A DNA stretch of 53,426 nt, counting the filler, from Circinaria calcarea (lineage: Eukaryota): NCBI GenBank assembly GCA_051942165.1. It is 3 parts of 3 records of this genome, joined end to end, with 100 filler letters (N's around TTAATTAATTAA, not from the genome) between each part and the next. Parts side by side here need not be neighbours in the genome. Positions count along the whole stretch, not along the records: positions 35,709 to 53,426 come from JAVECS010000258.1; 2 more parts are not named here. The stretch is one strand, 5' to 3'. Every line of letters starts with the position of its first letter. The first letter of the stretch is position 1. The position numbers were made by a program, and so were the translations under genes. Shown one piece after another: positions 28,319 through 51,855 of this stretch. The notes below the pieces were generated by a model. It was not told the origin of the DNA and did not search any database. It worked only from the letters and a program-made list of their open reading frames with translations.

Positions 28319-31300
28319 ATGCCATACATTATAGAAGCCGCGGCGGGCGACACCTTGTTGGAGCCAATTGCCATCGTTGGCATGGGTAAGCGTTCCCCGA
28401 CATGATTTGATGGCTGTATCAGTCGAGTTGTGTGTCGAGTATACTGATACTCCATAGCATGTCGGCTCCCAGGATCCGTCGACTCTGCGTCATCCCTATG
28501 GGATGTGCTCAAAGAGAAGAAGTCGGTTCAGACTAAGAAGGTCCCGGCCAACCGTTTTAATATCGACGCCCACTATCATCCAGACCTCTCCCGACCTGGT
28601 AGCTTCCACGCTGAAGGGGGCTACTTTCTCGAGGGCGACCTTGCGGACTTTGATCCCACTTTTTTCGGCATGACTCCAATTGAAGCCATGTGGCTGGATC
28701 CACAGCAGCGGAAGATGCTCGAAGTCTCTTACGAATGTCTCGAGTCAGCGGGTCTTTCACTAGAAGTAGTGGCCGGTAGCAATACCGCCGTATTTGTGGG
28801 TAGCTTCACGAGTGATTACCAGCAAATGTCCACCCGCGAGCCTGATTTCCGGCATAACTACACAGCTACTGGCGTTGACGTAGGCATCATCAGCAATAGG
28901 ATTGGAAATACGTTTAACTTGAATGGTCCTAGGTAATCCGCGGTCTAGTCGCTTGATCTGATATACTTATCTAATATTTGTTAGTTTCACTATTAATACC
29001 GCATGCTCATCTTCGATATACGCCATCCATAATGCGTGTCACGCTCTACGTACCGGAGATTGCGAAGCTGCGATTGCTGGTGGGGTTAACTTGATCCTCA
29101 CTGTTGATCAGCACATGAATACTGCCAAACTGAGTATTCTTTCACCAACATCGACGTGTCATACTTTCGACAGCTCAGCCGACGGCTATGGACGAGCAGA
29201 AGGTGCTGGCGCGCTCTATCTCAAGCGCCTTTCTGATGCCGTCAGAGATGGGAATGTCATCCGTGGAATCATACGCTCTTCGGCCGTTAACACAAATGGC
29301 AAAGTTGAAGGCATGGGACTCACTCATCCCAGTGTTAAAGGACAAGAGACAGTGGTCCGCAAAGCTTACGAACGTGGAGGTCTCGACCCCAACAAGACAG
29401 CCTACCTTGAGTGCCATGGAACAGGAACCCCAGTCGGTGATCCTATAGAAGTTCGGGCGGTATCAAACGCCATGAATGATACAAGAAGCCCAGATGCACC
29501 GTTACTGATCGGTGCTATCAAAGCAAACATAGGTCACAGCGAAGCAGCAAGTGGCATATTCGCTGTCATGAAAGCGGCCATGGTGACCGAGTCAGCCATA
29601 ATACCTGGCGTCTGTGGTCTCCAAAATATTAACCCAGCCATCAAAGAAAGTGAGTGGAACGTGAAGATTAACGTCGACACAAGGCCCTGGCCTAAGGAAT
29701 TCGAAGTTCGAAGGGCTAGTGTCTCATCATTTGGTTATGGCGGAACCAATGGGCATATCATCGTGGAGTCTGCCGATGGATTATGTCCTTGGTATGAGCA
29801 TGGAAAGCCAAAAGCCATCGCAAAATATCAATATAATACTGCCAGACCGTTCTTGATTGGACCATCGGCTCACGATAAGAAAACTTTGGTCAGGAATATC
29901 GAAGCTTATCAAAAGATCGTTAAGGATTTCTACCTTCCTGACATCGCATACACTCTCAATTCGAGAAGAACGAGATTCTCCAATAGGGCTTTTATCATTA
30001 CAGCCGAACAGCAAGAAGCTAGTGCCTTCGATACTGGTTCCTTCACGTTTGGGGTAGCAAGTTCCCGTCCAGTGAAACTCGGGTTTATATTCACTGGTCA
30101 AGGAGCACAATGGCCAGGCATGGGGGTTGAAGCTATGAGAACCTTCCCTGCCTTTGGACGGACGATTGACGCACTCGATGCTGTCTTGCAATCAGTTTCA
30201 CCGGCCCCAACCTGGACACTAAGGGAAGCCCTTGAATCGCCTAAGGAGTCGAGCAGGGTTTCGGAAGCCGAGATCTCCCAACCTGTGTGTACTGCAGTTC
30301 AAATAGCCATAGTGGATCTTTTTGCATCATGGAATATAAAACCTGCCGTGACAGTTGGCCATTCATCGGGCGAAATCGGAGCAGCATACGCAGCAGGGCG
30401 CTTATCAGCTCCAGAGGCTATCTTGGCCGGTTTCTTTCGTGGTTTGGCTGTGAAAAAGGCGGCACCCGTTGGCACTATGCTTGCGGTAGGTATCGGTGCA
30501 TCTGCAATACAGCAATATATCCCTGAGTTAGTTGCTGAGGAAGTGACGATAGCCTGCGAAAATTCTTCCAGCAGCGTAACTTTAAGCGGTCTTTCTCCGG
30601 GTATCATTATTGTCAAGGAACGGCTCGACAAAGCTAAAATTTTTGCACGGGAACTTCCTACAGGAAAGGCCTATCATTCGTCTCAGATGAATGCTGTCGC
30701 AACTCTTTACAGTACGCTATACACGAGGGCCTTTAATACCCTTGACGATATTGATTTCGAATGGCGTCAACCAAAAGCCCCCATGGTCTCTTCTGTTACC
30801 GGTAAGCTATACACGAGGGACGATATCTCCATTCAGTACTGGTGTGATAATCTCAGAAGCCGAGTTTTGTTCGACTCTGCCATGACGACTCTGGGACAAT
30901 CGGAGTTATTCTCAGATGTTAGTTATCTAGTTGAGATTGGACCTCATTCTGCTCTAGCTGGACCAATCAAGCAGATATGTTCCGCGAACGAATTCAGCCA
31001 TCTTGCATATACCCCAACATTAACTCGTGGGTGTGATAGTTCTGTTGCATTGCTCAAAACTGCGGGCGAGCTTTACATCAAAGGACTATCCGTCGACTTC
31101 CAACAGATTAATCGTATTGAAGATTCTGCAGATCCTCTTTCGGGCAGGAAGCAAAACTTACCTCGATATCTCGTCGACCTACCCCCTTATCAGTGGAATT
31201 ATGAGAAAAATTTCTGGTATGAACCTCGATTTAGCCACGAGCAAAGACGTTCGAAATTTGCACGACATGATATTCTTGGGAGAAAGATATTCGGTCTGTC

Positions 31301-34300
31301 CGACAATTCTCTTACCTGGAAAAACACTTTACGTCACAAAGACGTCCCATGGCTAAAAGATCACCGCCTTGGTGATGCAGCTGTTTTCCCTGGAGCAGGC
31401 CATTTCTCCCTTGCGGTCGAGGCTTATATGCAAGCCTTGGACGTTGATGAGGACAGTATTGCGGGAGTTACCCTGCGCGACGTGAATATCAAAGCAGCTC
31501 TTATCATCCCCGAAACCGACGATGGAATTGAAATCCAGACAAGAATGCAAAGAGTTTCCCAATTTGGAAGCGATAGCGTTTGGTATGACTTCACAGTGGA
31601 GTCAATTGATAATGGTGTATGGACAACACATAGTAAGGGGCGGATTGGTATGAACCTGGTTGAACGCCCCTTTAAACAGGACTTCGACTGCCCTATCAAG
31701 CTTAATAAGCTTCATCAACACACATTAGCCAAGCGATGGTATGACTCATTCAATCTTGTTGGTTTCGAGTATGGTCCATCTTTTCAAACCCTCAGCCATA
31801 TCCGGACAAACGGCAAAGATCGGGCTGCAGCGGCGGATGTATATGTTACGAACGATTGTAGATTGATGAACAAGGAGTCTCGGTATATGTTACATCCTTC
31901 AACAATAGATGGCTGCCTCCAACTCCTCAACGTGTCAGTTCATTCAGGGCTTCATAAGGACATGCCGTTCGGTGTTGTGCCCCTCGAAATGGAGGAGATT
32001 AGTCTTTTCTTCCCTGGCTCAGACTGCGCTATTGATGGTAGTGCAGTGGCATGGACTGATAACACCAACGGCCGCTACTTCAACACCAACATTCAACTAC
32101 TTGGTACCTCTGGCAAGCTCATCCTCGATATCAAGAATCTCCGCAGTGTGTCATATGAAGCTGCTGTTCCTCAGCGCCGTTCAGATATGCCCACTCGACA
32201 ACCATACTCACAGATTTCCTGGAAGCCGGATATTACCGCATTGTCGGACGTCCAGGCGAAGAGCGTTTTCCCATCAAACGTTCAAAAGGACCAGTGTATC
32301 GCAAGAATGATCGAGCTATTGAATCATCAAAAACCTGTACAGAATACACTCATCCTTGGGAATGCGTCGATACATATGTTGTTAGCTGTCAGAAGTTCAA
32401 TGCTGACTACGTCGATATTGACGGTCGGCTTAACTTCAGCAAAGGAAGCTGAGAAGCTCGTTTCAGAAGTAGAGGGCTTAAATATTTCAATGTTTGTCTT
32501 ACCAGATGATAACTTAGAGCTTGCTGAAGCCGTTATCGAATCCCATGATCTCTTCATTCTTGATGAGAGTCTAATCTCGCGAGCATCTACTTCGGATTTG
32601 GTCAACAAGCTCAATTCCAACGCAGTGAAGGGAAGCCACATGATTGCTTATTTGCAATTATCTGATATGAAAACAGCTATATCTAACTCGATCGGATTTA
32701 CGCCGCCTCAACTTTCTATTGATTGCGGAAGCGTGAACATCATGTTAGCAAGCGCAGAGCCACACCAAAACAGAGTCGTACACCTCCAACGACGAATTGC
32801 AATCCTCTCGCATTGGAGTCCCGACGCAGTATCTAAAAAACTTGCTGAGAAGTTTCAAGAGAACGATTGCGGCATTCTTCTGTCCAAGATCGACGAAGCC
32901 AACATTGCCAATGTCAACGAGATTATCATAAACGACTGCCATGGAACTTTCCTGTCCGCTCCTACCAAAAAGTCTTTCAATGCCCTCAAGGTCGTTCTCT
33001 GTTCCGGGAAATCGATTGTCTGGCTTACTAAAGGGGTCAATCAGGGTAATACCATATCCGGTGGAATGAGCCAGGGGTTTCTTCGTGCCGTTCGGTCTGA
33101 GCAAGCTGCAGCCAGAATTGCGCTGGTGGATATCGATGAGGACGTGACCATTGAGGATGTGACTCCAATCCTTCTTGACAAACTTGAACACAATAGTGTA
33201 AAGGATTCCGGACTCGACACAGAATTCTGGATACGAGGTTGCGGTATCGTACATGTGCCTCGGCTTATCTCGCAAGACGCCCTTAACTTACCCCTTTCGG
33301 ATGACATAGTGTCAGCCATCAGCGTACCAATTGATGAAAATGTCGAATACGAAAGCTCCATCAACGGTAATGATCTCGTCTTCGAGCCTAAGCGCAGCTC
33401 AAGTGGCGATAAAGATCTTGATGTGCTTGAAGCCGAAATACAAGTCATATACTCGGAACTCAGCGCAGAGGATCTAAGTACAGGCTCTCAAAGACCACGC
33501 ATTGTACTCGGAAAGGTCCTCGATATTGGGTCAGGGCTTGAACAGTCGTTAGTGGGCCAGGAAGTTGTCACATATATTAATAGATGTTTCGAGACTAGAA
33601 TAAAGTCCTCAGCTTTTGTTAGAATATCGACAGCTGCGGATGCATTACCTGAAGCTCCGCAATTCATCGCCACTTTGCCCAACCTCTGCAAAGCCATCGA
33701 TGCTATTGTCAAGACCGGAAAAGCCAGGAGTGGAGATCATGTGCTCTTATTACCTTCAGCGTTGCCCTTCGTGGATGCTGTCGCTCGACTCAGCCGTGTC
33801 CTTAGCTTCCAATTCTCAGCTGTGGTTATGGATGCAGAAGAAAAAGATGAGTGCATTGCCAGATATCACCTTGACAGCGCGTCATTGCTTTTGGCTAAGG
33901 ACGTGGAGGCTATTCGAGAACTTATGACTTCAGCGGCTGCTCCAAATGTTGTGATCGCACATTCTTTCTCAGCGCTTAGCCAAGAGACCTGGCGGTTCAT
34001 GGCTTCTATGGGCAGGTTCGTGCTATGTGACGCTGCTATAGACGTGCCGCTAGATACACTCCCGTTCACCAAGGGGGTCTCATTCTTGACTACTGGAATT
34101 TCCACAAGGTTCACGAGAGATAAATCTTCGTTGAACGATTTACTTCAATCAGCCGTTGAGCTTATTTGTGGTAATAGCGATACTCTGACGCGGAATCCGC
34201 TCGTTATGGATATCGGGAGGCTTAGTGATCTTCAAAACGCTCGATCAGATGGAGCGCTACTGGAACCGAATGTTCTCAAGGTCTCTTATGGTGAGAGCAT

Positions 34301-35585
34301 CATCAAAGTAGGTATTCCTTCAATTTTTGTGAATCGCAGGCTAAGATTTGATTATAGACGAGAGAGACACAAGAGAATCTTAAATTCTCTTCAACTGCAG
34401 CATATCTTCTGGTCGGCTGCCTTGGTGGTCTTGGTCGGAGTTTGACTACCTGGATGCTGGAACATGGATGCAGAAATTTCGTCTTTCTCTCCAGATCAGG
34501 TGCAGATAAACCTGAGGCCGCGGAAGTGGTCGGCTCTCTGCGGAAAGCAGGAGCATCAGTTCAAATATTCCGTGCTGATGCTGGCGACAAAAAGGCTGTT
34601 GCAAACGTCCTTTCGATTGTTAGCTCGACGATATCTATTCGCGGTGTGGTTCATGCTGCCATGGTTCTTCAAGTAAGCCATATTTCTGCATCAATCACAA
34701 AACAAGGCTAATTTTGAACAGGATGGGATGTACGAAGGAATGTCTTTTGAGAAGTACATTTCGGCCGTCTACCCAAAGATGCTCGGTGCTATAAGCCTTC
34801 ATGAAGCGTTGAATAACACCCCGTTAGACTTTTTCGTCATGACAAGCTCCATCTCTGCAGTATTGGGCAACCCAGGACAAGCGAATTATTGCGCTGGAAA
34901 CAGCTACCTCGAGGCTCTCGCCTGGTATCGCCGTAAGCATGGCTTAGCAGCCAGTGCTATCGCCCTACCCATGGTCCTAGACGTAGGAGTCGTTGCCGAG
35001 AATCAAGACATCGAACTGTCTCTGAACCGCAAGGGCATGTACGGCATCGACGAGCGCGAGATGCTCGCTGCCTTCGAGGCCGGCATGCGTCAAGGTCCTC
35101 CCAAAGACGGTCAGGCACATATCGGCGAAGCACAAATCGCTCTCGGTCTCGATCCAGCGTCTCTTGCAGCAGCCGTTTCATCTCAGGATACTGCAAACGT
35201 CTACTGGTATAATGACGCCCGCCTCAACAACATCCGTGCGGCTGTCGAGGCGCTGAGCACCTCTGGATTAGACACCAGCGGCTCTGCCGCTGCTGGCTTT
35301 GTCGGCTCGCTTACAGGTAAGAGTCCACAAGTGGTGATTGAGAGCATCGGAGAGTACATCATCAAGCGGTGCTCCAGCATCTTGATGCTCCCGGCCGAGA
35401 ACTTCGAAATGGAGAATAAGTCGGTGGGGTCGTATGGGTTGGACAGCATGATCGGCGCGGAGCTGCGCACGTGGTTGTTCAAGGAATTTGGGCTGGAGAT
35501 TGGCTTTCAGGTGCTGTTAGGGCAGACATTGACGTTCACTGCGCTGGCGAAGATGGTGGCGGAGGTGTTGGGGTTGCTTGGGTAG
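28319..35585 (+). CDS. Iterative type I reducing polyketide synthase KS-AT-DH-(degenerate ER)-KR-ACP, about 2347 aa, 5 exons (28319-28385, 28458-28932, 28985-34307, 34358-34672, 34722-35585); DEP5-like
   Basis: KS EPIAIVGM, DPQQR, NTACSSS, HGTGT, GHSE; AT GQGAQW, GHSSG, AYHS; DH DHRLGDAAVFPG and IDGCLQ; KR GCLGGLG, VLQD, YCAGN; ACP GLDSM. Spliced length 7044 nt is divisible by 3. Confidence 0.96.
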
Positions 35586-35608
35586 GGTAGGGTAGGGTAG
35601 GGTAGGGG
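35580..35608 (+). repeat. (GGGTA)5-GGGG pentamer run overlapping the PKS stop codon and reaching the contig end
   Basis: gggtagggtagggtagggtagggtagggg immediately before the Ns. Confidence 0.85.
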
Positions 35609-35708
35609 NNNNNNNNNNNNNNNNNNNNNNNNNNNNNNNNNNNNNNNNNNNNTTAATTAATTAANNNNNNNNNNNNNNNNNNNNNNNNNNNNNNNNNNNN
35701 NNNNNNNN
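35609..35708. other. Artificial contig-joining spacer N44-TTAATTAATTAA-N44
   Basis: Same 100-bp six-frame-stop linker as at 17784. Confidence 0.97.
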
Positions 35709-38090
35709 AACAAATGCTAATGTCTGATCCCACATGTCACGATTGACACTCCTTTTCCATTTAGTCTCGAGATATTCGATCCACCAATTCAACCACGGGG
35801 TAGTCGATGTGTTCCAACTCATGCTGGGCCTTTGAAACAGGAGACGCCAGTACTCGATGGCGGCGTCTAGTTGGACGGCCTTTTGGCCGGGGCTGCGGGC
35901 CAGGACAAAGGTGTGCTTATAGACGCGCTTGAAGAAGGATTGATCATTTGCGAGGTTGTGCCGTAGAGTAGCCATGTGGGCTTGTTGTTTCGAGAGGCTG
36001 TCTGCATTGTGAAACAGCCAGTATGAGACAAAGCTTTCGCGGCTAAGTTCCCCCATGATTGGCGCGTTGAGTTCGGTGAGAATGGCAAGCACGGCGACTT
36101 CATCAAGGTTGACGCCAAGATCACCGAGGTACTTGATGGTGCCGTCGACCTCGATAGTGTGGGGACTCTCCTTCGGGTCATCTATGGTACCTAGTCAGCG
36201 GGGTTTACAATCAGCTTAGGATGATTTCCATCGTACCTCGATATCTGTCGAACAGCTTGTGTACATTGGACGCCAATGACGATCCCGATTTACCCGACGA
36301 GGCACTCTGCACTTGAAAAAAACTAGTATAGAAATGACCATTGTTAGCAGGGATCCTCCGCTTCCGCCATGCTCCCAGGGTAGCAGGATTTATTGAGACA
36401 GTATCGTCAGCACTCTCATCTTCCGAGAGATAATCAACCGCCGGCGTGCTACAGCCGCCCTTTGTCTGTTGCAAGGAGGAGGCTGTTGTAATTGTCATGC
36501 CAGCAAGCCTACGTAACTCCTGGATAGCTTCCCCATCACTGCCGAAAGCATTCGACCTAGGGCCCTTGGACTGATCCAGTGCGCTCGGCGTAGCATGAAC
36601 ATAGCCTTTGAGTGGTGAGGGCTGAACATTCTCCTTGTCCCAAGGAATCCTAGTGTTGAGCGTTGCTTTCTGGATCTCCCTTACACCGGGCAGACCAACC
36701 TTTGCTCCTAACTTGCGAGATGCGCGTGAAGACATGCTTAACCCCAAAAGATCTTTGGTATCAACTTTGTCTGGAGGATCAGGTGTAGAAAGTGAGAGAT
36801 TCCGGAAAGTATCACTGGGCTCTGGAGCAGAGGGCAGACTTGCTTCGAAATTCTGTATGATATCCACAACGTTTGCCGAGAGCCGTGGTTCTGTAGCTGA
36901 AGCTGTAACCTCAACGCCGAAGTAGCAATCTGCAGGGACCTCATTCTCATGGAGTTTCATCGATAACTCTCGATCGGAAATGTTTGGCATGCCCAGCTCT
37001 GCGCGGAATCTGGATGGGGCGTCCTCGAAAGGAATTACGGATGTCATTACATCCTTGTGAATTGCTTGCAATCTCGTTCGAATACCGAGTTTGAGCCTAA
37101 GAGTAGGCACTTTATCTGCGTCCCATTTTCGTTTGAGCGTCCCCTTTTCTTGATCGTGATGATCTTCAAACCAAGGATCAATCCCGTAGAATTTGAGCAT
37201 TTTCAGGAATTTTTTTCGTGGCATCGCCAAACGATGGATCCGATATCTGAACATCAAAGGAAGTTTGCGCCATGTTATCCAGTGAGACGGATCGTCGGCC
37301 TTGGCCATCCAATCTGTAAACTTCTCCTTAATGCAGACATGGTAAAGCCTTCTTTGCTCTTCTAACCATTCTCGCACCCACACCCTGTCTATTGGCTTCT
37401 TTACAGCGGACAGTACTTCTATCATACGCTTCCCTTCCCAAAATCGTTGGTGAACGGGCATCTTCTCCAGCGCGTCTTGACAATACTCCGGAAGGTATTC
37501 AATAAGCATTTGATAATTTGCAAGTTCCTCGTCTAGCGGATGATCTTTTTCGTTACGAGACACGACATAGCCACCCTGGGTCACGACCACGAGCTCTCGC
37601 TGGGAGCGCGTCCACCCATCCTCTTCCAATTCTTTGCCTTTTTGACTCGGCTGCTTCATCTCACTCGCGTTTGCCATGTCCTTGAGTGCCACTGTCGGTA
37701 TTTCCAGAGAGGGGCGCACCTTGAGACCAGGACTGCCTTTGCAGATGTAGGAACCTGTAAACTGCCGAGACTAGATGGGTACTTGTGGCATGATGCTGCC
37801 TAGGTACAACCAAGGAAATTGATGTAAAGAAATGCACATACGCGTTTATGGCTTGCTCAGCGTTCCACCCAGTCAACTTAAGTTGCTAGGGAAATGAGCG
37901 TTAGCACTTAAAATAGCTCTTGCCAAATTGGACGAGGATCATTAGTGTGACAAAGACCGCTGTGCCCACAGTACAGGATAGCGCTGGATGGGGATATACT
38001 CACTTTCGCAGCTACGCTCTCCTTTGCAGAGGTAACGGAGGTGAACTGGGCGATTGCACTCCTCTGGGATGGAGTGTAGGCTGGTGGCAT
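35709..38090 (-). CDS. DCN1: Defective in cullin neddylation protein 1 (UBA-like + PONY domain); exons 38090-38004, 37885-37842, 36322-36237, 36181-35709 (3' end cut by spacer)
   Basis: MPPAYTPSQRSAIAQFTSVT...QLKLTGWNAEQAINA|FFQ...LFDRYR|DDPKESPHTIEVDGTIKYLGDLGV...MGELSRESFV...FKRVYKHTFVLA...GQKAVQLDAAIEYWRLL...SVNRDMWDQTL. All junctions are GT-AG and in phase. Confidence 0.92.
36323..37770 (-). CDS. Long stop-free ORF (about 482 codons; first ATG 37677) inside DCN1 intron 2, in frame with DCN1 exon 3; unknown protein
   Basis: ORF-track entry 36211..37719 (502 aa) reads through the DCN1 branch point and acceptor into FFQVQSASS...LFDRYR. No recognisable domain. Confidence 0.65.
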
Positions 38091-38560
38091 TTTGGCTTGC
38101 ACCTTACAGCAATTGGTAGTGGGAAAAGGGTTTAACTTGTCAACGGGGGAAGACTCTGAAGGAGCACACGACGTTGGAGGTTGAATGTCTACAATCTACG
38201 ACATATTAGATACTCCGATGAGTAGGCCCGGTTTGAGGCTGATGATGGCTGGTGACAGGGAAGGTCGGGTCGGAATATTATAGTCCCTGACATTCACACC
38301 CCTTGACAGCTACTTCATAGGTTGGGTGAAAGCCTTTGAACAACCATTAATGACAAAACCACAAATGCTAATTGGTCTGGCATTTTCGAGTGACTTGATT
38401 TACGCACCACTTTTAACCCTCAGGTGTTCACTCTGTTATGTTCCTGTCCCCAAAGCAGCGAAATTCCAGCGCCACCCTTAACGAAATCTCTCCGCCAGAT
38501 CTGATCAGCAAGTATCTCAATCCGCAAATGCCTTATAGTCCTCCTTGAGAGCCTGTAGCC

Positions 38561-38580
38561 AAAAAAAAAAAAAAAAAAAA
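38561..38580 (+). repeat. A20 homopolymer
   Basis: 20 consecutive A. Confidence 0.9.
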
Positions 38581-39744
38581 GCCAATGGTTGCAATTAGCA
38601 GTTTATGATTTGGGGATGGAATGGATCAGAGTCGAGCCAAGGAGATTCGAATAGCAAACACTTTCTAGCTTTCGAGAACACAACGACCAACATGCGCGCA
38701 AGCTTCTCTTGAATACTATACTCTCCACACGGAGGAAAAGACTCGTTTTGAGACGGAGACCAAATGTCTACCCCCTTCACAATCCGCCCGAGTTGTGATT
38801 GTACGTACCTCGTCAGGAATTCTTGAGCCTACCCAGGCCCATTCCTGGGGGTAACAAAAGCACGCGCGTATCGAACACAAGCACCAAGTAGCTAGCTCAT
38901 GTCAGAGTTCCGAAGTACAGCCCACGGCGGTATAAACGCTGGCCCTTTTCGAACCGTTGAAGCTTGGTCTCCCAATAGTCAAAGAAATATATGCCCTGTC
39001 AAGCGATATAATAGATGAGATTTCAGAGACCTTCCACTCCTGATATTTTCGACAGAAGTGTGAGTTACGAAAGCCACTGACTTCTGAAAAGTGACTTGAT
39101 TACCTGGTTGTATCTATGTTGGACAACTCCCGGTCTTGAGGCCAATACGGGGATGAGAGTATGGAGATGATACATGCCGTCATCGTAGCCCTTTACATGT
39201 GTGGACTATTATCAATAAGGCTGCATATGAAGGCTCCAAACTAAGCCCACTGATTGGGAACAGCAAACCCCGACTTTCAACACCCCGCAACGCCTGATGG
39301 TATAGGGGGAGATTACAATATTAGATACTTACTTCAGGCAATGACTTCTTTCTGCCCAGCCCGGCCTCCCTCTACAGAGGTAATATGAGCAATTAGCGTG
39401 CCTCATATTCCGGTTGTACCCCAGCTTTGACCCTGACATCGATGGCGATTCCGTGAGATCTTTCAAATCACATAGAAATATTCATGGTGCACAAGGTAAG
39501 TACGAGGGCATAGGCCTCACGATTGACTAGACATTACTCAGATCCCCTTAATTGCACAGTGACCCGCCAAAGGGACCAGGGCCTTTTCTGTCAACCGATC
39601 GGGAGGAGTATTGTCAAAAATGGATGTATTCCGTAAAGCCCTTCCTTTCGAAACAATCTGAATATGCTGGGCCTGAGCTCCTTCAAGAAATGCTCACCCC
39701 CCTCCCAAAGGACGACGATCTAGCCCCTCGATCCAACACCAGCC

Positions 39745-42173
39745 CTAATCCCCCAAGGGCATGTTGTCAACCTCTTCACTCAATGCCCTCCAATTGTCGG
39801 CTTGCAGCTCCGCATACTTCACGCGCTCTTGGCTCCAGTCTTGATGTAGCTTACTGACATGGTATTGTGATTGCTGGAAGAAGATCAACTCATCTCGAAT
39901 GCATTCCTTAATGAAAACTCCTCGCGCATGCTGGTTCACGATCGACTGCTTGTCCTGTGGATAGTGTTAGCCATGTTGGAGACGGAAACGTGGGGCAAAC
40001 GCTACATTTAGTATAGCTTGTTCGACCTTCTCCTGCTCTCCCGGTTTTACTGTGCCTTCTGGTCTAGCTCTTAAGCCAGCTAACTTGTTCTCGTTGTTCT
40101 CTATCCTACGTTCCAGCTGCGGAATATTATCCTTCGCATATCGATCCCGACGGTCGAACATGTCTCGAACGCCTACAAGGGTATCCCGTTGCCGCTTTAA
40201 ATCCTCTAGAACACCCACATCCCACGCACGGGCTTCATCTTCCAGAAGAACCTGGCTGATTTCAAGATGCCTTGCCGCGGATTGAATTCCCTCGTTCAAA
40301 AGCGGTACATCGTTGTTGTCGATCGCATAAGTTCCTTCGGATTCTTCGGTCAAGCCCTTGAGAGCAACCGAAAACCGGAGATAGTCGGATGCTATCCCTT
40401 GATTTCGCTTGGCGAGTCTCTCAAGTAAGTTGCAGAGGCCTATATAGGTCTCGGCAGATCGTCGAACGCTGGCACGAGCGGTGTCGAACGTCTCGGTGAG
40501 ATTTGTCGGCAGCGAGTCTTCTAGCCCTGGGGGTAGAGACTTTCCAGTGAATTCTTCTTGTACAGATATCGTCGCTTGTTTCCGCCATACTGCTAATTCC
40601 TGGTTGAGTATATTAGTTTACTAAGGAACGACTGCGACGCGGCGACTCTTTTACCGTGGGAACCGTCAAGAACATGACTACGAGCTGCTCCTGGCTCAAA
40701 ACAGGATGCCTCACAAGGGCATTGGTGAATCGAGCTAGACCACGTCTACGCTTTTCGATAAAAGTCACATCGGAGGATAAATGTCTACCATTGACTTGAG
40801 ATGGTCCAAGATCAGCTAGGCCTCAGATACGGGAGGCAGTGAAACTTACCAGCGACTCTTTTTGGTGGTAACAAGGGGAGTTGTCTGAAGGGGTATCTCT
40901 TATGCAAACAATCCAATAACCAAACGAAATCACTGTATCTTCGAATGACTGTGCTCGCCCTTCGAGCACTCTTCACCTCATAATTGCGATGCTGAAACAT
41001 GAACATGCCCTCTTTCTCAGGAAGAACAGAAACCGTAACGATTTCTTCAACACCGCGGCCAATGGCCTTGCCGCCCCCAAGGGTTCTGGAGGGCCTTGTA
41101 TCCGAACTCCCATTTTCGTCGCCTCCGGAACCAAATCCTGAGGGATCGAGACCTTCCTGCTCTCCATTAGGGAACTCACTATTAGCGTTGTCATATGATC
41201 CCCACCCGCCTCCGCCATTGCCTGATGGTACTTCTCCAGAAGGGGGATCGCCAGCTAAGGTCGACGACGTGGATCCTGGTTCCTCCGAATGGGTAGTGAA
41301 TGCGCTGGTGGTTCGTGACGTTCCAAGATTCCCATCTCGATTGGGCCTTGCGGTTATTTCAGTCGGTTTGAGCGTTGCGTCGTTACTCACGGTATGAGCG
41401 TGGCCTTTATGTAAAGCTGGGCTAGCCCATGGATCAGCCTCCGGGTCATCGAGGGAGTCTTTCCGGCCACGTCTTGACTTTGAAGGTATGGCTGCTGGAG
41501 GATGTTCGGGTGAAGGAGTCCCCGTCTGTTGAGGCCGTGTTTCATCTATGGTTTCGGAAACCTTGGCATTTTTCAATTGCTTTAGATAGGGTATCGAGAC
41601 ATCCGGGAGATCTAGGTGATTGTCAGTGAGCTAATGGTGTGGTCTCGTCGCATCAGGGCTGCATCAGGGGCCTTTACTTTTCCTTCGCTCATCCACCCCA
41701 TCCAGTGTAGCCTCCTCGCCCTCCTTTGACAAACCAATTAAAGCAAGTAAGACGTTGAACTCGCTACGACCCAAACTTGTACTTTCGTTGTGCCGAGGTG
41801 CGACGAGGTTAAGTAGTCTTGTCTGGTCCGTAGGCTCCAATCTACTACTCTCCAATATCTTCTTTACCACATTCACACTGATGCCGGATCCAGACCGTTC
41901 ACCCGAGTCCAGGACAGCGTCGAACGCATCAATGTAGCTCTCAGGGACATCCGACGCTGGTAGCAGCCTCTTCACAAGATCGCCCCGAGCCGCTTTCTTC
42001 GGGGTAGGTAGCCCCCACGGAGAAGCGTTTGTACCATTGGACTCGTCGGCAAAGAGTGAAGCGTTGGAGACTGCTCCCGGTGTAGACTCGTCATCGAACA
42101 GTGACTTCGATGTTGGGCGGGCCGGATGATTGGCCAAGCTCGACTCGACCGGCGGGCTCCCAAAGAGCGACAT
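39745..42173 (-). CDS. MVP1: Sorting nexin Mvp1 (PX + BAR), multi-exon
   Basis: MSLFGSPP..., EFNVLLALIGLS, PX domain EGMFMFQHRNYEV...RRYSDFVWLLDCLHKRYPFRQLPLLPPKR, BAR region VLEDLKRQRD, C-terminal WSQERVKYAELQADNWR...MPLGD*. Confidence 0.93.
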
Positions 42174-42637
42174 CTCTAGAACGAACTCGAGGTTGTAAAA
42201 ATGGGGATCGCGACTGATGAATCCCCGATGACCATCGATATCGGACGTGATCTGGAGTCTGCTGCCGGTGGGACCTTTATACTACTTAGAGCTTACTACT
42301 GCCTCACGTTACCTTGGGACTTCGAGTGTTCGCGCTCTAGCGGGTCTCCGAGGACAGGGGTCTAGATTCAGAACCGTACCACCAATGCCAAAGATAACAC
42401 AATCATCTGAGTGGGTAGGAGTAAACAAATAGCACGTTGATAGCTGATGGTTTCTTAGAGTTCGAATAGATATGAGTATCGTATGCTTTATGCGAAGCCT
42501 AACAAAGCCTGGGTGCTGTTTAATGCTAAAATATATATCTCGAAGGTGAGAACGTCCCCCTGGCGAGATGGCCAGGCATATAAGCTCAGATCATGCACAG
42601 CAGACTCTTGGGTCAGCCCACCCTTCCTGACGTCCTT

Positions 42638-45600
42638 TCATGCTTCACTTCCCGTCGTAGCCAAAGATGACCTTCTCGAACCATCGTGGCCAGTATCAGA
42701 TTCCCCCGTGCCGGCCGCTTGCTCCAACGTCGCGATATCTTGCCATCCCCTACCGCCGATTTGCAGGACCATAGCATAGTTCGTGTCAACGGGAAACCAT
42801 CGCTCCCGTCGTGTATGAGCCTTGCTGCCTCCTTCCAACGCTGCACGACTTGCTCGGGTAGTTCTCTGTCTTTTGCCGTTCCTTCCACCCTGTGAAAGCA
42901 AGTTGCTCAATCGAAGTCTCTGCTCCTCTAAGCGCAGATCGTAGGAGACAATGGACCGGACATAGGGCGCTGCATCCTGGAGGATGATCGACAGGGGCCC
43001 GTCAAAAATTGAAATTTGAGGACCTCTTGACTGTGGAAACGACACTTTAGGAGATTCTACGAGAGAGCCGAATGCCGAGGTGATAGTTTGCCGTGTCACT
43101 CTCTGATGGGAATCACTAGCCTGTGTCCTCTGGACGATATAACGATTCATAATATCTTTATCAAACGGAATTATCGAGGGGCCTGTATGTCCGGATAGAA
43201 GTAGTGTTTTGGAACATGCCTTGAGTGATAATGCAATGGATGCGCTTGTATTTGTCGGATCTTGCAAAGGATCTGCATTTAGCACGGGGAATCCGTCAAC
43301 GTAGCTGGCTAGCTGGTTTTCCGTCAAGTCAGGTCCAGTGATGTCGAGGAGGGTCTAAGTATATCAGGATCTCGTTCGCAAATATATTGGTAAATTGGAC
43401 TTACTGAAATATCTTTGCGTAACCCAAGGCAAGGAAGTACATCAGCAGCGCTGATGGAATCTAACACCTGCTCATATGCACTCAATGCCTGTAAGATACT
43501 TCCTCCTAACGATTCGCTTGTAGTGGTGGTCAGAGCATGGCCGTCTATCAAATCATGCCAATCCTCCACATCAACATCCCAACCATACAGGGCTTCCAGT
43601 AAGAGTTCAGTATCTTCCACAGCAGCTCCCGTGTAGGTATTTTGAGGTGTTCGATGTCCCAGCATTCCCATACCTTCGGAATAGCTATGTTTACTTACGA
43701 CACGCTGTCGTTCTCCATTCGTATTGTAGTAAGTATCTGCTGGCGACGGTATTGGCATCCATTCCAAACCCCCTTTAGAATCCCCAACCGCCATTTGGCA
43801 CCAGAAATTAAGTTCTGCTATTGATGCTCGGAGATCACCCTGTTTGGCCTTGTACACCGAAGAGACAGCATCTCGTGAAAGTAGGTGACCTTCGCTACCA
43901 GCTAAAAGCAGGAGATAGTCTACCGCAATTTGCTCTGGTGGTGATGCTAGGCGCAATATAGCATGGAGATTCATCTCGTCCAGAGGCAATCGCTTCTCGT
44001 CGGTGCACGTCATGATAATAGGCCTCCTAGATTGAGATATGAGCCCAAGCACAGTTATCCAGAATTGCTTATCTTCTTCGAAGAGGATGTCAACCTCTTC
44101 TAAGAGAATTAGCGATTGCTTTTGATGAGGCTGCTTCTTGGGATGATCTGATTGTTTTCGGGTAACAGATGTTGAAATATGTGACGTCTTTGACCCAGCT
44201 TTTGTTTTGACGTTCGGATTCAAGAACGCATTTACTGTCCTTTTACTTTCAGGATCTTGTCCCGCAGGCCTAGATTGGTGGCTTCGTTGATTATCATCAC
44301 TCTGAGCCTCAGGAGCTCGATGCACCAAATGGTTTCTTGTCATATCACCGACTTTGTCTAGTATATCTCTACCACTCCTCCTAGTACCGGCATTGATTTC
44401 AAAAATCTCAAATCCAAGTTCCTGAGCGACTGCATAGACTGCGGCAGTCTTACCACAGCCATGAGGTCCACTGATGACAACAGCATTGGTGCTTTTGGGC
44501 GGGTCTCCAAAAGATTTGGAAGGTCCTGACGATTCTCCTGCCCTAATCAGAGATTTTCTAATGAGGATACTATCATCTTTTGAAAGTAATGGATCCTCGG
44601 GATCAGTCAGCTCATCCATCTCATGTGCTTCCTCTTCATTTGAAATTATGAACCCATCTAACTCATCCGCCCTCTTACGCTTCTTTCTAGATTTGACAGG
44701 AGTCCGTTTCGAAGCGATAGAAGATTCGCGAGATCCAGAAGAATCTTTATTCCCACTGTCTGTCGATGTCACAGTTAGATTCCTAAGCCAATCACGTAAG
44801 AGCACAACTTCTCGACCAAGTTGAAGCACATCTGCAGCACACCTGGGTGCATATTTATGCACCCATTCCTGGGACTCACACTCGAATTTGTCGAAAGCTG
44901 TCAAGGATGTCGGAATGCTGTCGAAAAGACGTAAAAGGGCTTTACTGATATGGAGATTACCATTTGGTCCGATAGTACCTTCTTTCAACTGGGAGGAACG
45001 AGTAGTTAATGGCAAGACACTATACAGATTCTGGCGTAAATCTTCCACCAATTCATGACCAGTCATGACCAAACGCTGAGGTTTCTGCACGAAGACTGGT
45101 GGTATGTGAGCATGATCTTCGGCATTCACATCCGTCCGATACTTATGTGCCTGCTGGACAAGAGGGGACAGCACGCTCTCTTCATCAAGGATCTGTACCT
45201 CGACAGTTTTAAGTTTTCTCTGTCGTTTAGGTAAATGGGCATCGTGGCTTGGCTTGTATGAATCTGTAACCAAACACGGGGATAGGTTCCGAATATGAAC
45301 CATATCCTGGGGAGGCCATAAAGACTCGAGGGACCCTGGAAACTTCGGTTTGGTAGTCGAGATCCCTGAATTACGACCCAGGCCACCAAGCTTAGCCCAT
45401 GCCGCAGCGGCATCAACTCTAGAGACTGTAACGGAACTTTTGACGGGGCTAGCACTCTTATCATCCAATTGCTTTACATTTGTGGGCTCGTTACGCGTAG
45501 AGGTAGGATACAAGATTGTCTCGTCTTCTTGATGAACTGCTTTACCAAGGAAAAAAGGATGCATAGGCTTCAAAGGCCCCTCAGTGTGACTCTTCATCTT

Positions 45601-46528
45601 CTCCGGTGACTCCTTAACGGCCGGGAGAGCGTTTTCGGCTTCGCTGATCAGCTCTGTGAGAATGTCTTGTATTTTTCGTGATATCCTTCTACGTGACCCC
45701 TCATCCTTACCGTACTTGATGATCACGATTTTGGTCTCCAAAGTTCCTAGACGGCCGGGTTCACCTTTCTTTCTCTTCGATCTGCCGAGATTCGCAGACA
45801 CCCGATATTTAGGGGATCCCAATTTGCCATCCGAACCAAGTTTCAAAATGTTTCTCTTTGGTGTTCGTTGGTCAAGGGATGGAATCTCCTCGACTGCGGG
45901 CTTTAAGATCTCCAGAGGACCCCTTTCTCGCTTAGGAGACAACAGAATTTGATCGCGTGAAATGTCAGGCTGACTTCGAGCGTCGGCCACTGCTGCTTTG
46001 AGCTGATCTTCCCAGTTTCCCTCATCCCTGGGTTTTGGCGGTGAAGGTGCACGGTCTGGAGACACTGTCCGCTGTCGCTTCCTCCGATCCGTATTCGGAT
46101 CTATGTCAAGGTTCTCTGACACATTGATCACCGAATTGAGGTTGAATGAGGCATTATTCTCTAATCTGGAACTTCTAGTGGTTCTTTGGTCTCTCAAGCT
46201 CTCATCCGTGTGGGACTGCTCATGGTGTATCTGAGGATCTCGATCCAGCCGTAAGCTTGACGTGAGTGTTAGTTGATTCGGCTTAGACGGTTTCCTTGGC
46301 ACTTTTGCTTTCCCAGCTTTCTTGCGCGGGAGGGGCCTCTCATTTTCAGTTATAGGATCATCTTGAGGTGACTGGTCTGGCGTAGAGACTTTTGGGACGT
46401 CTGTATGATCCATTAGTAATTCCTCACATAGATTAAACAGAGAACATACTTCTAACTGATGAGAAAAGTGGGTATGTAGTGTGAGCGGCATCAGCACTCA
46501 TCCCGACTGGTTGGACTACCAAAGCCAT
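42638..46528 (-). CDS. ELG1: Elg1 alternative RFC large subunit (AAA+ ATPase), about 3 exons
   Basis: WVHKYAPRCAADVLQ, Walker A GPHGCGKTAAVYAVAQELGFEIFEINAG, Walker B SLILLEEVDILFEED, GDLRASI, C-terminal RTTRASRAALEGG. Short first exon from ATG 46528 inferred from a GTATGT...CAG intron. Confidence 0.9.
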
Positions 46529-46900
46529 GCAGTTTCACTCATAATGTCCTCTGTCGCTGCTTCCTCTCAAGCATAGAGACGATAGAGATTGATATGATAA
46601 GGCGCAAGGTGCCGAAATTAGGCGTTGGTTCTCCAAATCCCACTGAGACTCCGAAAAGGAGAGCCAAGTAGAATTCGCATTCGATTTGAATGCACCTCAC
46701 GTCGTCTTCCTGAAAGGAGCGCGTCACGACACGAACAGGGATGGGCGTAAGTGGCTGGTGACAGGGGATCAGCCTCAATACCCCACAAAGTTTCGAGAAA
46801 TTTATGACCTTCAGCCTTATGTCAAGTCTGGTATTTGTCTTAAGCTGATTACGGAGTACGAGTATCAATGTCTTGACTGTAAATCTCGAAGAGCGAGAGG

Positions 46901-49738
46901 ATGATACAAAGTCCAATCGTGCTGGCAGAGCTGCCTAAGCCCCTGACGGAAAGCAGAAACCGAGTTCTTGCAGCCGACATTTATGCGGTGGGGGAGAATA
47001 GGAAGAGGAAGCGGTCAGAGCTAGCTGTCGCTGTCGACAGTGTAGGCTTAAATCTCTACGATGTGGGCTGGGATATGATCTTGCTTTGAACGTGTCAACT
47101 AATCTTGAATCAGGTCCGAACCTCCAAGTTGATAACTGGCTACTCAGTGTCCCCGCAATCCTCCTTCACTTGCCCGCCTCTCTCAATTCGCAGAAAAGCA
47201 GCCGATCACAGCTCTACCCGACGCCTGACGTATTGTTCGCTACACGATTCCAAACCAAGTATACGATGCTTTGTGGAAACTTCAAGCAGAAACTCGGCGC
47301 ACGAGATCCGGATATCCACCGCAATTTTCGAGATTGAGGCAAGCAGTCCTATAGTACATTTGGACCTTGTGAATGGTACCCAAAGTGGCACGGAGCCGTG
47401 TTCAAATGCACTCCTTGCGGTGCACGAAGATGGAGATATCAGATGCGTCGCGGAAGATTTGTCAAGGCAGTACTGGAAATCTAGTGCCAAAAGTCTACTC
47501 TCTGACGGAGATCGACAAAAGGGAATCTTCGTCCAGTGCGCCGTAGTACTGACCGTGGATCAAGCCCGCAGAACTTTGCTAAAAAGCCGAGAGGATATAG
47601 TCGCAGTACTCGAGGCGGACATTGGTTCTTCCGTACACTCACAAGCTGTCCCAAGCGTCTTATGCATTGTGTTGCGTAGTGCTGACTCCAGGAGTACGCA
47701 CGTTAAGAGCCCGTTGTACGTACGCCTCTTGACAATTAGCGCACGACCGACGTTGCACGACTCGCGGATAGCGGTACGCCAGAGGCCAATCGAGGAATTG
47801 CTGTCTATGACACTCCCTGAGCCCCCAAACCTTAGCAGCAAAGACTCGACTTGCTATCTACACGAGGGCAGTGGGTCTCTCTATCAGTACGGACAAAGAG
47901 GATTAGCCGTTTATGATCTTACTGGTGCAGCACCACGATTACAGCAGAATGTGCAGCTAGATCAGCAAATCTTATCCTGCCTTCGCCTAGGACCCTCAAC
48001 GGTTATCATGACTTCTCATAGTGACATCTCAATCCTTGATACTCGATACTTTTCGCTCCAATCAACGCTGTCCTTAAAGGTACCGATGGAAACATTAAAC
48101 GAGCCAAATCTCAGAAGAAAAACCCGCAAGGTGCCATCAGATACCCGAATCTTATCGTACTCTTCTCCATTAAGCACAATAGTCGGACTTCAGGGGCGAT
48201 CACTTATTATGTTCCAACTTTCCGGATTACAACCCGATGAGCCACGAAAGCGGAAGAGGGTCACGGAAGGGAGCTTGATAGATGCTATCGGACGTGGGAT
48301 TAACTGCGCTAAAGTCAAGGTCAATGAGTCTATTGCAGCTAGAAACTCCACAGCGCAAGTTCTAGGAGATGCTCTTGCCTCAGATGAGAATTTAAAAGAT
48401 TGGCAAGCTAAGGTGGCCGAGCTGGACTGTTATGTTCAGAAAGGGGACGTAGAACAATTCGATGCAGCTATGGCTCTTCTACTCGAAGGAAGTTCCACGG
48501 TAGAGAATAAAAATAGAGGAAATGATTCAGCACAGAAGCATATGTCACGCCGAGAAGGCAAGTTAAAAGCTTGCCGACACAAGATAGCATATGCGCTAAG
48601 CAAGATATTTGTATACGACAAATCACCGAATGCCGTACCGGGTACCGGCCAAAAAATGCAGCCAAGGCTCAGAATTAAATTTCTCCCTGCAAAAACCTTT
48701 GGCCTGCTCCTTAGCAATGGTTACATCTCTCTGCAACAGATCGAATCGGCTTTGAAACAAACGAAAACTATACCACTGACTACTTCACTGGATGCTACAG
48801 CGTTAATTCAAGCGCTTGCGGCATTTGACGAATCTTTGCAAACACTAAACAATGTTTTTGCAGAACGTATTTATCTAGGACCGCAAGATGTAGTGTATAC
48901 CCTACGGGTGGCCATTGCAGTCTTACGGCATTCAGAAAACAAACTCAATTTAAAGACGATTACGAATGACGAGGCTGCAAGTGACCAAGGATTGGAAAAT
49001 GCTATGCAAATCGTGCATTACCGCGAAGAAACCAGTCAGTTATCAAAGGTGTTAGACGATGAGAACACACAAATTACTCATAGTGTCATAAGAGCATGCT
49101 TGACCAGGTTGTACCACTGCCATGAGTCAGACATTCGAAAAGCCTTGAAGCAGGAGCTGCTTCGGAATGATATGATCTTCTTTATTGATTATCTCCGCTT
49201 AGAACTTGCGCAGGGCGGATGGCTATCGCGTCATGTGGAAAGCGTATCAATACCCTTGAAGGAATATCTTCAGCAGGGAAATCAAATCAGCATTGCTGCA
49301 AAACTCCTCAATTGCGCCATTGACAGCCTCGGAACGGGAGGTTGGATCCTTGACTCTTCTACCGAATACAACATGCTAGAAACCGGAGACACCATCTCAT
49401 ACATGAAAGCCGAGGTCTCGGCTGCCCTCGAAGGCATCGAAGAAGCCGCATACCTACAGGGCATGTTGCAGGAAGTTCTACTTTACAGCAAGACGGCACC
49501 ACATGGATTACCGGAGCCCGGTAAAGCATTGCAAAGACCGAGGATAGTTAAGCCGATTACCGTTCCGTTGGAAGACGAGTTATCACATGCTCTGCCCCTA
49601 GGAATGAAAGGACTGTCGCGAGTGTCGATGACAAAGATTGGCGCCGGGGGGGAGATCCAGAGTCGCAGTATCAGGGATGTTGGGAGGTTGAAGAGCCATC
49701 AGGTGGGAAAGTACAGCTTTGAAAGGATCTTGATATGA
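46901..49738 (+). CDS. UTP8: U3 snoRNA-associated protein Utp8-like (beta-propeller), 2 exons
   Basis: IQSPIVLAELPKPL...RKRKRSELAVAVDSVGLNLYD|VRTSKLITGYSVSPQSSFTCPP, C-terminal EVSAALEGIEEAAYL...RDVGRLKSHQVGKYSFERILI*. Confidence 0.8.
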
Positions 49739-49911
49739 GAGTTGTGAATTATATATTCATTAACCACGCATGCTTTATCCTGTGCGATATAACCGTTTTC
49801 TGATACTCGTAGACATGTAAATCACTCGCGTTGAAAGAGATCACGCTTGGTATATCTACAGTCATCAAACAAAAACAAATTTATAATATTGAGGCTCACA
49901 GAGACAGAGAC

Positions 49912-49984
49912 AAGTCAAAGTCAAAGTCAAAGTCAAAGTCAAAGTCAAAGTCAAAGTCAAAGTCAAAGTCAAAGTCAAAGTCAA
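49912..49984 (+). repeat. (AAAGTC)n hexanucleotide microsatellite, about 12 copies, just past the MHR1 stop
   Basis: Perfect tandem run aagtcaaagtc...; explains the KSKSKS ORF. Confidence 0.95.
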
Positions 49985-49997
49985 GCTATTCCAATTG

Positions 49998-50954
49998 TTA
50001 CACCGTAGCCACAGCAGGTCTCCCGTCCGGTTCCTTCTCCTGCACGTCTAGCCTTTTTACTCTCTTCTCCAAGTTCTTGATTCCCCTCTCCGAAGCCTCA
50101 ACTCCCTCGCCATCATTAGTAACCACCTTTCCCTCCTGACTACTCCCGGCTGCCTCATCCCCCACAGTCTCCTCCTCAACAGCTGGATCCTCAATCTCCT
50201 CAGCCTCCGCCTCCATGACCGGAAACGCTGCCGTATACCGGCTCTTCTCCAACCCGTCATGCACCACCGCTCGCGGCCACGCCTCCGCATACTCGGCATC
50301 TAGCATGTTCGCCCACCGGATGGTCACCCCCTCCACCCCCTTCTCCATGCCCTCCTCCAACACCGCACTCTCCTTCTGCCTCCCCAGCCCCCTCTTCGCA
50401 GGCGGTCGCCCATCCTTCCTCACGCGCCTCTCCGCCCTCTGGATCTGTTCTTTCGAGAGCCCTTTTTCCTGCTGCAGCAGCACGGCCGCCATATCCGCCA
50501 CCGAGTTCGCCAGCTGGTTCATCAGCACTTTGCCCTTCGCTTTTTTGGGCATCAGCTGGCCGGCGTGCTTCCCCGTCGTTTGGGTGACGCGGCTGAGGGG
50601 GTAGGCGGTCTCGTGCAGGCGCCGGTATTCCCGTAGCTTCCGGTAGGCGGTCAAGCCGGAGAGGGCAGAGGGGAAGGAGAGCAGGGCGAGGGGCGTCCAG
50701 AGGTCTTTGCGGAGGGATGCGGGGACGGTTTTCTTGCCGAGGTAGGGGAGTTGTTTGAGGGAGGTGTTGTTCTGTGGGATGGAGGGTTAGAAAGGCTTTG
50801 AGGGGAAATTGAGGATTGGGAAGCAAGGGGGCCGTACTTTCATGGCGCGGGTGAGGGAGTAGATGACTTGTTTTGTGCGGATATTGTTGTAGACGAAGAT
50901 ATGGGTGCCATGTTTTATGGCTTGGGAGCCGGCGGGGAGGGGGGTTGAGGTCAT
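49998..50954 (-). CDS. MHR1: Mitochondrial ribosomal protein mL67 / Mhr1, 2 exons
   Basis: HGTHIFVYNNIRTKQVIYSL | LKQLPYLGKKTVPASLRKDLWTP...GLTAYRKLREYRRLHE...LMNQLANSVADMAAVL...VTIRWANMLDAEYAEAWP. Confidence 0.9.
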
Positions 50955-51633: not shown

Positions 51634-51768
51634 CAGCGCTACCAGTAGTGCCAACAGTGCAGTCCAAAAGGCTTGCAGTCGAGTCTAGTCTAGCTGCCCT
51701 GGACTGTGGACTATTAGTGTAGACTGCAGTCCAATAGTCTAGTCTAGTCCAGACTGCTAGACTACCTG
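51634..51768. mobile_element. 135-bp diverged MITE related to the 21455 element, with perfect 8-bp TSD
   Basis: Starts CAGCGCTACCAGTAGTGCCAACAGTGCAGTCC (compare CAGGGCCGCCAGTAGTCCAAACAGTCCAGTCC) and ends CTAGACTACCTG. Flanked by GCTCCAAT at 51626-51633 and 51769-51776. Confidence 0.78.
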
Positions 51769-51855
51769 GCTCCAATGGTGGCTTCCCATATAGGGTCCGA
51801 GTACGTGGTAAGCTGAAAGAAGAACCATATTTGAAGACAGGCTCCATCTTCAGAA

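Follow-up and report, generated by a model that had tools for sequence, protein, structure and literature searches.

An open frame within the second DCN1 intron

The DNA analyzed here (the window, 53,426 nt) comes from Circinaria calcarea and carries a DCN1 gene whose second intron is almost filled by a long open reading frame (ORF). This species, a lichen-forming ascomycete (Lecanoromycetes, Pertusariales), is represented by a metagenome-assembled genome (MAG). DCN1 lies on the minus strand at the start of the third contig of the window (35709-53426, 17718 nt), and its 3' part is cut at 35711 by the contig end. Exon 1 (38090-38004) starts the UBA-like head with 29 codons from ATG 38090 and encodes MPPAYTPSQRSAIAQFTSVTSAKESVAAK. 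It is followed by intron 1 (38003-37886; 118 nt, GTGAGT...CTAAC...TAG) and by exon 2 (37885-37842), which encodes QLKLTGWNAEQAIN and ends in phase 2 as ...AIN plus GC. Intron 2 of the canonical transcript covers 1519 nt (37841-36323), with the donor GTATGT at 37841-37836, the branch point GCTAAC at 36348-36343, and the TAG acceptor at 36325-36323. Exon 3 (36322-36237) encodes the linker FFQVQSASSGKSGSSLASNVHKLFDRYR, in which GC plus T gives Ala followed by FFQVQSASS...DRYR. Intron 3 (36236-36182; 55 nt, GTACGA...CTGAC...TAG) precedes exon 4 (36181-35711), which starts DDPKESPHTIEVDG... and encodes the PONY (Cullin_binding) domain up to the contig end, which is followed by Ns and a linker. All of these features are on the minus strand, and the positions given for the exons, donor, branch point, acceptor, and 1519-nt intron in an initial annotation of this DNA are all correct.

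Splicing of exon 2 to exon 3 restores the usual junction ...EQAINA-FFQ..., and splicing of intron 3 restores the family consensus FDKYRDDP.ESPD. The exon 4 translation matches Pfam Cullin_binding PF03556 at 9e-23 (81 bits, cut-off 27.9) over profile positions 1-89 of 118. Neither exon 1 nor exon 2 is long enough to be scanned singly; by eye, their peptides align with the N-termini of canonical proteins that list Pfam PF14555/PF22566. The order of head, linker, and PONY in the product of exons 1-2-3-4 is the same as in fungal Dcn1/DcnA, whose type is yeast Dcn1. The product also shares its junction, ...EQA(I/V)(D/N)(A/S)(F/Y)F..., with 275-302-aa Dcn1 proteins of Lecanora, Thelocarpon, Sclerophora, Letrouitia, Sarcosagium, and Phyllosticta. 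The locus differs from fungal Dcn1 in the UBA-linker intron, which is 1.5 kb here and 4-5.5 kb in relatives, and which is an open frame in phase with PONY.

The minus-strand frame at 37770-36211 is open stop-to-stop for 519 codons. It runs through the branch point and the acceptor into exon 3, as the initial annotation had it, and is in phase with exon 3 and PONY. The longest open frame across 2000 mononucleotide shuffles was 241 codons. GC at codon positions 1/2/3 of the ORF is 0.56/0.42/0.49, similar to the long genes of the window. Translation from ATG 37677 yields 451 full codons (37677-36325, minus strand), the coding part of a proposed alternative first exon that is continuous with exon 3. 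The acceptor AG forms the first two bases of an AGT Ser codon (36324-36322), so that 452 residues precede FFQ, the number of new residues first counted. ATG 37677 has a purine at -3, a G at +4, and an in-frame stop 31 codons upstream. A basic patch, WRKRR (36369-36355, minus strand), lies directly 5' of the branch point, and the tails of relatives have R/K-rich stretches at the corresponding position. An NCBI ab initio model from the Circinaria calcarea MAG (P0002; 692 aa, Q9187_002020, partial) already translates the ORF, with exon 1 joined straight to it and exon 2 skipped.

Intron 2 is about 13-28 times the length of its two neighbors (118 and 55 nt). These were the sole introns compared, and for them the earlier statement that other introns here span about 45-120 nt holds. 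Separately, a 16-nt direct repeat (13/16 identical; ATGTGCATTTCTTTAC at 37839-37824 and ATGGTCATTTCTATAC at 36341-36326, gene strand) lies 2 nt and 3 nt inside the two ends of intron 2. It could be chance, or a trace of intron reshaping as the ORF shrank.

Homologous open frames at the same position in other Lecanoromycetes

A word-indexed search of 5.8e9 proteins with the ORF returned only P0002 and one relative, P0003 (406 aa). P0003 is 72% identical to the ORF over 405 codons with just two one-codon gaps, and it continues through ...RKRRIPANNGHFYTR-YFHAQ...DRYR, which is exon 3. The expectation under neutral drift was simulated by letting window codons 116-519 drift to 72% amino-acid identity (2000 runs, indels ignored), and the frame was still open in only 3 runs. 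A phmmer search of 1.84e9 representative proteins (E<=1e-3) gave 19 matches, mostly proteins of 900-1800 residues. Eighteen of the 19 finish with [A/T][N/D]...[R/S][F/Y][F/Y]Q...LNKLFDKYR (exon 3) directly past the homologous region; P0018 and P0021 stop earlier. A profile search with A3 (word-indexed collection, 8000 candidates scored) found only close relatives among the matches listed. A first metagenome scan with the P0026 group as query gave 385 pattern matches and no relatives, and a scan with the family alignment gave 20 loci (L001-L020).

Homologous ORFs of ~900-1850 codons occupy the same DCN1 position in Umbilicaria, Xylographa, Ptychographa, Toensbergia, Lambiella, and the 20 metagenome loci. 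Several of them are NCBI models titled 'Scaffold-type E3 ligase' with a C-terminal Pfam Cullin_binding domain, and the taxa with such models cover two Lecanoromycetes subclasses. The model lengths are 1679 aa in Xylographa opegraphella, 1751 aa in X. parallela, 1838 aa in X. soralifera, 1804 aa in X. trunciseda, 1674 aa in Toensbergia leucococca, 2029 aa in Ptychographa xylographoides, 1657 aa in Lambiella insularis, and 1580 aa in Umbilicaria vellea. Thirteen of the 20 metagenome loci have one long frame that is open for 1354-1848 codons or up to the contig end (1354-1355 codons in L007-L014 and L020, 1474 in L016, and 1848 in L017 and L019; L012 and L018 run off their contigs).

Searches of the metagenome loci by tblastn with the window exon peptides gave a uniform order of exon 1, exon 2, giant ORF, exon 3, PONY. 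Exon 1 was found upstream of the ORF in 13 of the 20 loci and exon 2 in 15; exon 2 of L016 was spotted by eye. PONY follows the ORF in all 17 loci with enough downstream DNA. Exon 2 homologues (QLKVHGWNVEQAID and similar) stand immediately upstream of the giant ORF. Exon 1 retains its ATG and is 66-83% identical to the window, and exon 2 is 64-79% identical, whereas the giant ORFs at those loci are just ~20-25% identical.

The Circinaria ORF was placed in the family alignment. It retains the N-terminal block, 'AIxxDV...FR..LG.P..S..EL', a degenerate 'DL.GL.M....R.LG.K.GLP', 'AFGSD.EA.QEL', and the tail. On sequence comparison, it is a strongly shortened member of a giant-exon family spread across Lecanoromycetes. 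The novelty first claimed for the ORF stands in part: it has no Pfam, PDB, or fold match, but it is not unique to this genome, as the cut-down form of a giant exon found class-wide and already present in P0002.

Two loci show variations of the 3' region. L016 (13967-14206) lacks intron 3, and exon 3 continues into the PONY exon (...FDKYRDDAAEEPDRIAVEG...); the frame is therefore continuous from the ORF ATG into PONY. The Lecanora helva protein P0036 (302 aa, canonical length) has its acceptor placed 27 codons farther upstream than usual, adding ...KAEHDADLEMTRW-FHQ..., which resembles a giant-ORF tail ([A][D]...R). Judging from this tail, the Lecanora intron probably also holds an ORF or an ORF remnant.

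The signals for skipping the ORF are kept along with the ORF. Exon 2 ends ...GA(C/T)GC followed by the donor GTA(C/T)GT (GTAYGT) in 4/4 loci printed. CTRAY (GCTAAC, GCTGAT, GCTGAC, or GCTAAT) lies 18-25 nt ahead of the AG in 7/7 loci printed, and in 7/7 the AG opens an AGA, AGG, or AGT codon directly before F(F/Y)Q. The exon 2 GC and the third base of this AGN codon together encode Ala, and splicing thus restores EQA(I/V)(D/N)A-F(F/Y)Q, the junction that is also present in the canonical 275-302-aa Dcn1 proteins. The same bases leave a mark in the long proteins. The branch point is Ala-Asn when read in the ORF of the window. In the family tails, which were inspected by eye and include many close relatives, 29/29 have R or S, the only two that AGN can encode, immediately before exon 3, and 30/30 have [A/T][N/D], which is NCT-RAY as codons, 5-10 residues upstream of the exon 3 boundary. 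The alignments show a 3' splice site that doubles as coding sequence and can be recognized in the protein as [A/T][N/D]...[R/S]. The branch point and acceptor would be constrained in both capacities because the ORF reads through both.

Two proposed products and the competing explanations

At each of the four loci examined, the first ATG of the ORF is preceded by a stop in the same frame, at distances of 31, 18, 6, and 1 codons. This ATG is 154-236 nt past the exon 2 donor and has a purine at -3 and a G at +4 in 4/4. The ORF thus has its own start codon and a closed upstream frame at these four loci and continuity with exon 3 in all family tails read, which is the arrangement of an alternative first exon. 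We consider it probable that the DCN1 locus has two products: the canonical UBA-PONY protein, which requires splicing, and a long ORF-PONY isoform that starts within the intron. The transcript from the upstream promoter would have exon 2 spliced to exon 3, removing the 1519-nt intron and giving a normal UBA-PONY Dcn1. We infer a second transcript that begins within intron 2, between the exon 2 donor at 37841 and ATG 37677. In this transcript the branch point and AG would not be used but simply translated, because no donor lies upstream of them. The long product would carry the 452-residue head in place of the UBA, ahead of PONY, and exon 3 would be common to both products. The head would most likely decide where, or on which cullin complex, PONY acts, by analogy with the metazoan DCNL paralogues.

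The initial annotation had proposed that one locus encodes two PONY isoforms through an intronic alternative first exon, and the proposal gains support from frame continuity in every homologue and from the retained UBA exons and skip signals. Selection on the ORF-PONY fusion and on the skip splice is suggested by these comparisons with more assurance than the internal promoter, which is less sure than the evolutionary parts of the proposal. For nearly identical group-A pairs (dS, the synonymous divergence, 0.02-0.033), the ratio of nonsynonymous to synonymous divergence (dN/dS) is 0.46-0.65. Purifying selection on the ORF therefore appears weak, as expected of a largely disordered protein. The ORF frame and its continuity with exon 3 persist down to ~20% identity, and this survival of the frame is a stronger argument for selection than dN/dS.

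Several observations weigh against the two-isoform interpretation. A dN/dS of ~0.5 is weak constraint, and in the closest group-A pairs the ratio is ~1, on few changes. P0003 begins at the equivalent of codon 116, and its comparison with the ORF omits the first 84 residues after ATG 37677. The PONY of the window is incomplete, its last part being cut off by the contig end at 35711. The Circinaria ORF is without most of the conserved family blocks (IRSxTPRR, KRKxS, and CxxC...CxC) and could be on its way out. The Lambiella P0040 and Xylographa soralifera P0047 models place the UBA, the giant region, and PONY in one protein, and in P0047 the exon 2 frame seems to run straight through the donor. 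By these models a three-part protein is possible in some species. Finally, the ORF is in pieces in seven metagenome loci, L001-L006 and L015 (JAABUU010000518.1, JAABUS010007358.1, JAABUT010000227.1, JAABUI010000072.1, JAABVA010000618.1, JAABUL010002314.1, and JAABUW010005518.1), and the six that reach PONY (all but L015) have stops there too.

The stops in PONY of these six loci are TGG->TAG changes. Because PONY, where reached, carries stops too, decay has affected the entire locus in these seven copies. An intact copy is present in the same assembly for five of them, and the decayed ones may be paralogues or may belong to a second fungus. Repeat-induced point mutation (RIP) was considered as the cause of the broken copies and rejected; their TpA/ApT of 0.66-0.70 and (CpA+TpG)/(ApC+GpT) of 1.28-1.29 are about equal to those of intact loci.

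A single constitutive UBA-insert-PONY protein would be made through a short intron, for example 37841-37733 with a CAG acceptor, and the 1519-nt skip would be rare or absent. The P0040 and P0047 models, which combine UBA Pfam domains with the giant region and PONY, point in this direction, and the CAG at 37735-37733 is phase-compatible (109-nt intron). However, CTRAY was found within 45 nt of none of the 29 phase-compatible exon 2-to-ORF acceptors in four loci, this CAG included. The ORF frame is closed one codon before the ATG in L019 and six codons before it in L016, and the exact GC/N...AG/N skip signals are kept in 7/7 loci printed. No two public models agree on the UBA-to-ORF junction: P0002 (Circinaria) leaves out exon 2, the Umbilicaria vellea model uses a donor within exon 2, and the Xylographa soralifera model reads through the donor. 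In these loci no in-frame route from exon 2 into the ORF is conserved, and we read the divergent joins as ab initio predictors forcing a path. The CAG was correctly described at the outset as phase-compatible and without a clear branch point, and the UBA-insert-PONY splice suggested for it has no conserved equivalent. A constitutive three-part protein is unlikely on this evidence. DCN1 is probably mis-modelled in most lichen genomes, because the public models of the locus disagree (P0002, P0037, P0040, and P0047), with exon 2 skipped, exon 2 truncated, the donor read through, or the UBA head dropped.

Most public models of these species begin in the ORF and are without a UBA head, which would fit a locus that makes only the long ORF-PONY protein and keeps its upstream UBA exons as a non-contributing relic of the ancestral gene. 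Unused exons are expected to decay, as they have in the broken copies L001-L006. Instead, exons 1 and 2 are well kept beside giant ORFs of much lower identity, and the donor, branch point, acceptor, and phase are all retained, making a relic somewhat less likely again than the three-part protein.

The ORF could also be a separate gene lying within the intron, or a neutral remnant, and its reading on into exon 3 would then be accidental. Its weak selection and the absence of a Pfam domain or a match to solved structures are compatible with this idea. A nested gene would require its own stop codon and 3' end within the intron, yet no homologue has a stop before exon 3 despite identities down to ~20%. 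Drift would close a neutral frame, as it did in all but 3 of the 2000 simulations. Either version is very improbable.

A long intron-filling ORF in frame with the flanking exon is also a feature of mobile introns and introner elements. The intron here differs from them in being a spliceosomal GT-AG intron at a single locus with class-wide vertical descent, and no endonuclease or transposase signature and no typical repeats were found in it. The length of the intron and the direct repeat at its ends notwithstanding, origin of the ORF from a mobile element (introner-like or transposon) or a captured foreign gene that landed in the DCN1 intron is extremely unlikely, as all 20 metagenome loci and all named homologues are at DCN1, no free-standing or multicopy relatives were found among the 1.84e9 representatives, no terminal inverted repeats were found at the intron and no transposase-like Pfam match in the ORF, and composition and codon-position GC match the host. 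The captured-gene or transposon option raised by the initial annotation gains no support from these comparisons.

The preferred reading, a spliced UBA-PONY form and an intron-started ORF-PONY form, has parallels in known systems. PMC4886823 describes mammalian DCNL1-5 (DCUN1D1-5) as proteins in which distinct N-termini on a shared PONY govern localization. The head of DCNL1/2 is given there as a UBA, and the heads of DCNL3-5 as unstructured with a myristoylation site or nuclear localization signal. The same source places the cullin-binding 'DAD patch' of yeast Dcn1 at D226, A253, and D259. Like the mammalian proteins, the long form here would swap the UBA for a largely disordered head with basic patches. 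Unlike the mammalian family of five separate genes, both heads are in one locus, and the head here is far larger (452 to ~1850 residues), with its own repeated helical module that is unrelated to UBA (hhalign 0.3%). Alternative first exons that arise from intronic promoters and give new N-termini are a known class in plants and animals (PMC2174465 and PMC11711277). The proposed intronic start would similarly join a new N-terminus to downstream exons. An alternative first exon usually ends in its own donor and is spliced to the next exon. No splice is needed here, and the ORF runs through the canonical branch point and acceptor.

Neither alternative first exons nor DCN1 paralogues with swapped heads are new in kind. 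The family of giant heads and the 3' splice site that is read twice across the class have, as far as our searches show, not been described. The searches found no paper that connects Dcn1 or neddylation to lichens or Lecanoromycetes, nor one on DcnA and neddylation in Aspergillus nidulans, subscription journals being outside the scope of both searches. We lean slightly toward the broader view that Lecanoromycetes have a class-wide second Dcn1 form with a giant, mostly disordered, lineage-specific head, encoded in the canonical intron and translated through its branch point and acceptor, that would aim cullin neddylation at a site or substrates specific to lichen fungi. If this is true, a single fungal locus does the job of five paralogous mammalian genes, and about ten codons are doubly constrained, as splice signal and as protein. 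The locus makes it possible to test how a neddylation E3 diversifies at its N-terminus inside one fungal gene, and it adds a new protein region of up to ~1850 residues, with relatives known only in Lecanoromycetes among the matches listed.

The head region and the surroundings of DCN1

A Pfam scan of the ORF found no family above its cut-off and no transposase-like match; a DUF4298 match (E 0.082) is below the family cut-off and was rejected. Scans of 12 homologues gave Cullin_binding in P0007 as the sole Pfam match. A PDB sequence profile search with the ORF gave 0 matches, and the ESM Atlas gave no usable match. The single-sequence AlphaFold model of the ORF was unusable, with a predicted local distance difference test score (pLDDT) of 37. 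With a 23-sequence alignment, AlphaFold predicted confident helices at ORF residues of about 50-180 (pLDDT 72-94) and 200-260 (pLDDT 95-97), and the remainder is of low confidence. This model fits the helical half and disordered half predicted earlier. When the same model was compared with the PDB by Foldseek, nothing matched at E<=1e-3, and the best hit of a wide VIA-align search (Z 5.8 over 54 residues) is within the noise stated for helical models.

The helices form two modules. M1 (37395-37132, minus strand; ORF residues 95-182, ...DPSHWITWRKLPLMFRYRIHRLAMPRKKF...) is the most conserved family block and has a pLDDT of 80-94. M2 (37092-36892, minus strand; ORF residues 196-262, ...RLQAIHKDVMTSVIPFEDAPSRFRAELGMPNISDRELSMKLHENEVPADCYFG) has a pLDDT of 95-97. 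M1 and M2 are copies of one ~60-residue module (hhalign probability 91.8%, E 7e-7), and a hidden Markov model of M2 finds 1-3 copies per protein in 20/20 family proteins scanned. The possibility that the modules are UBA-like was rejected at hhalign probabilities of 0.3% and 0.2%. The models suggest a head composed of a repeated ~60-aa helical module and long disordered stretches, with basic KRK/RKRR patches and, in the full-size forms, CxxC...CxC. From its basic patches (WRKRR in the window, KRKxS and RKRR in other members), a nuclear role can be guessed at.

The gene that precedes DCN1 on the minus strand encodes an Snx8/Mvp1-type sorting nexin (39970-41630), with a BAR domain (2.6e-94) and a PX domain. 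The position of this gene means that the canonical DCN1 promoter must sit in about 38091-39960. The window consists of three contigs joined by N runs around a TTAATTAATTAA spacer (17828-17839 and 35653-35664) with stop codons in every frame. A contig end thus cuts DCN1 short, and the polyketide synthase (PKS) gene that appears adjacent to it is not its true neighbor. This gene encodes a reducing-type PKS (28962-35585, plus strand; Pfam KS, AT, DH, and KR) and reaches the end of the middle contig. Directly after the last PKS open frame, at 35591-35618 on the plus strand, the GGGTA/TAGGG unit is repeated about five times, and its G-rich strand is oriented 5'->3' toward the contig end. These repeats look telomere-like, though the unit is 5 nt and not TTAGGG.

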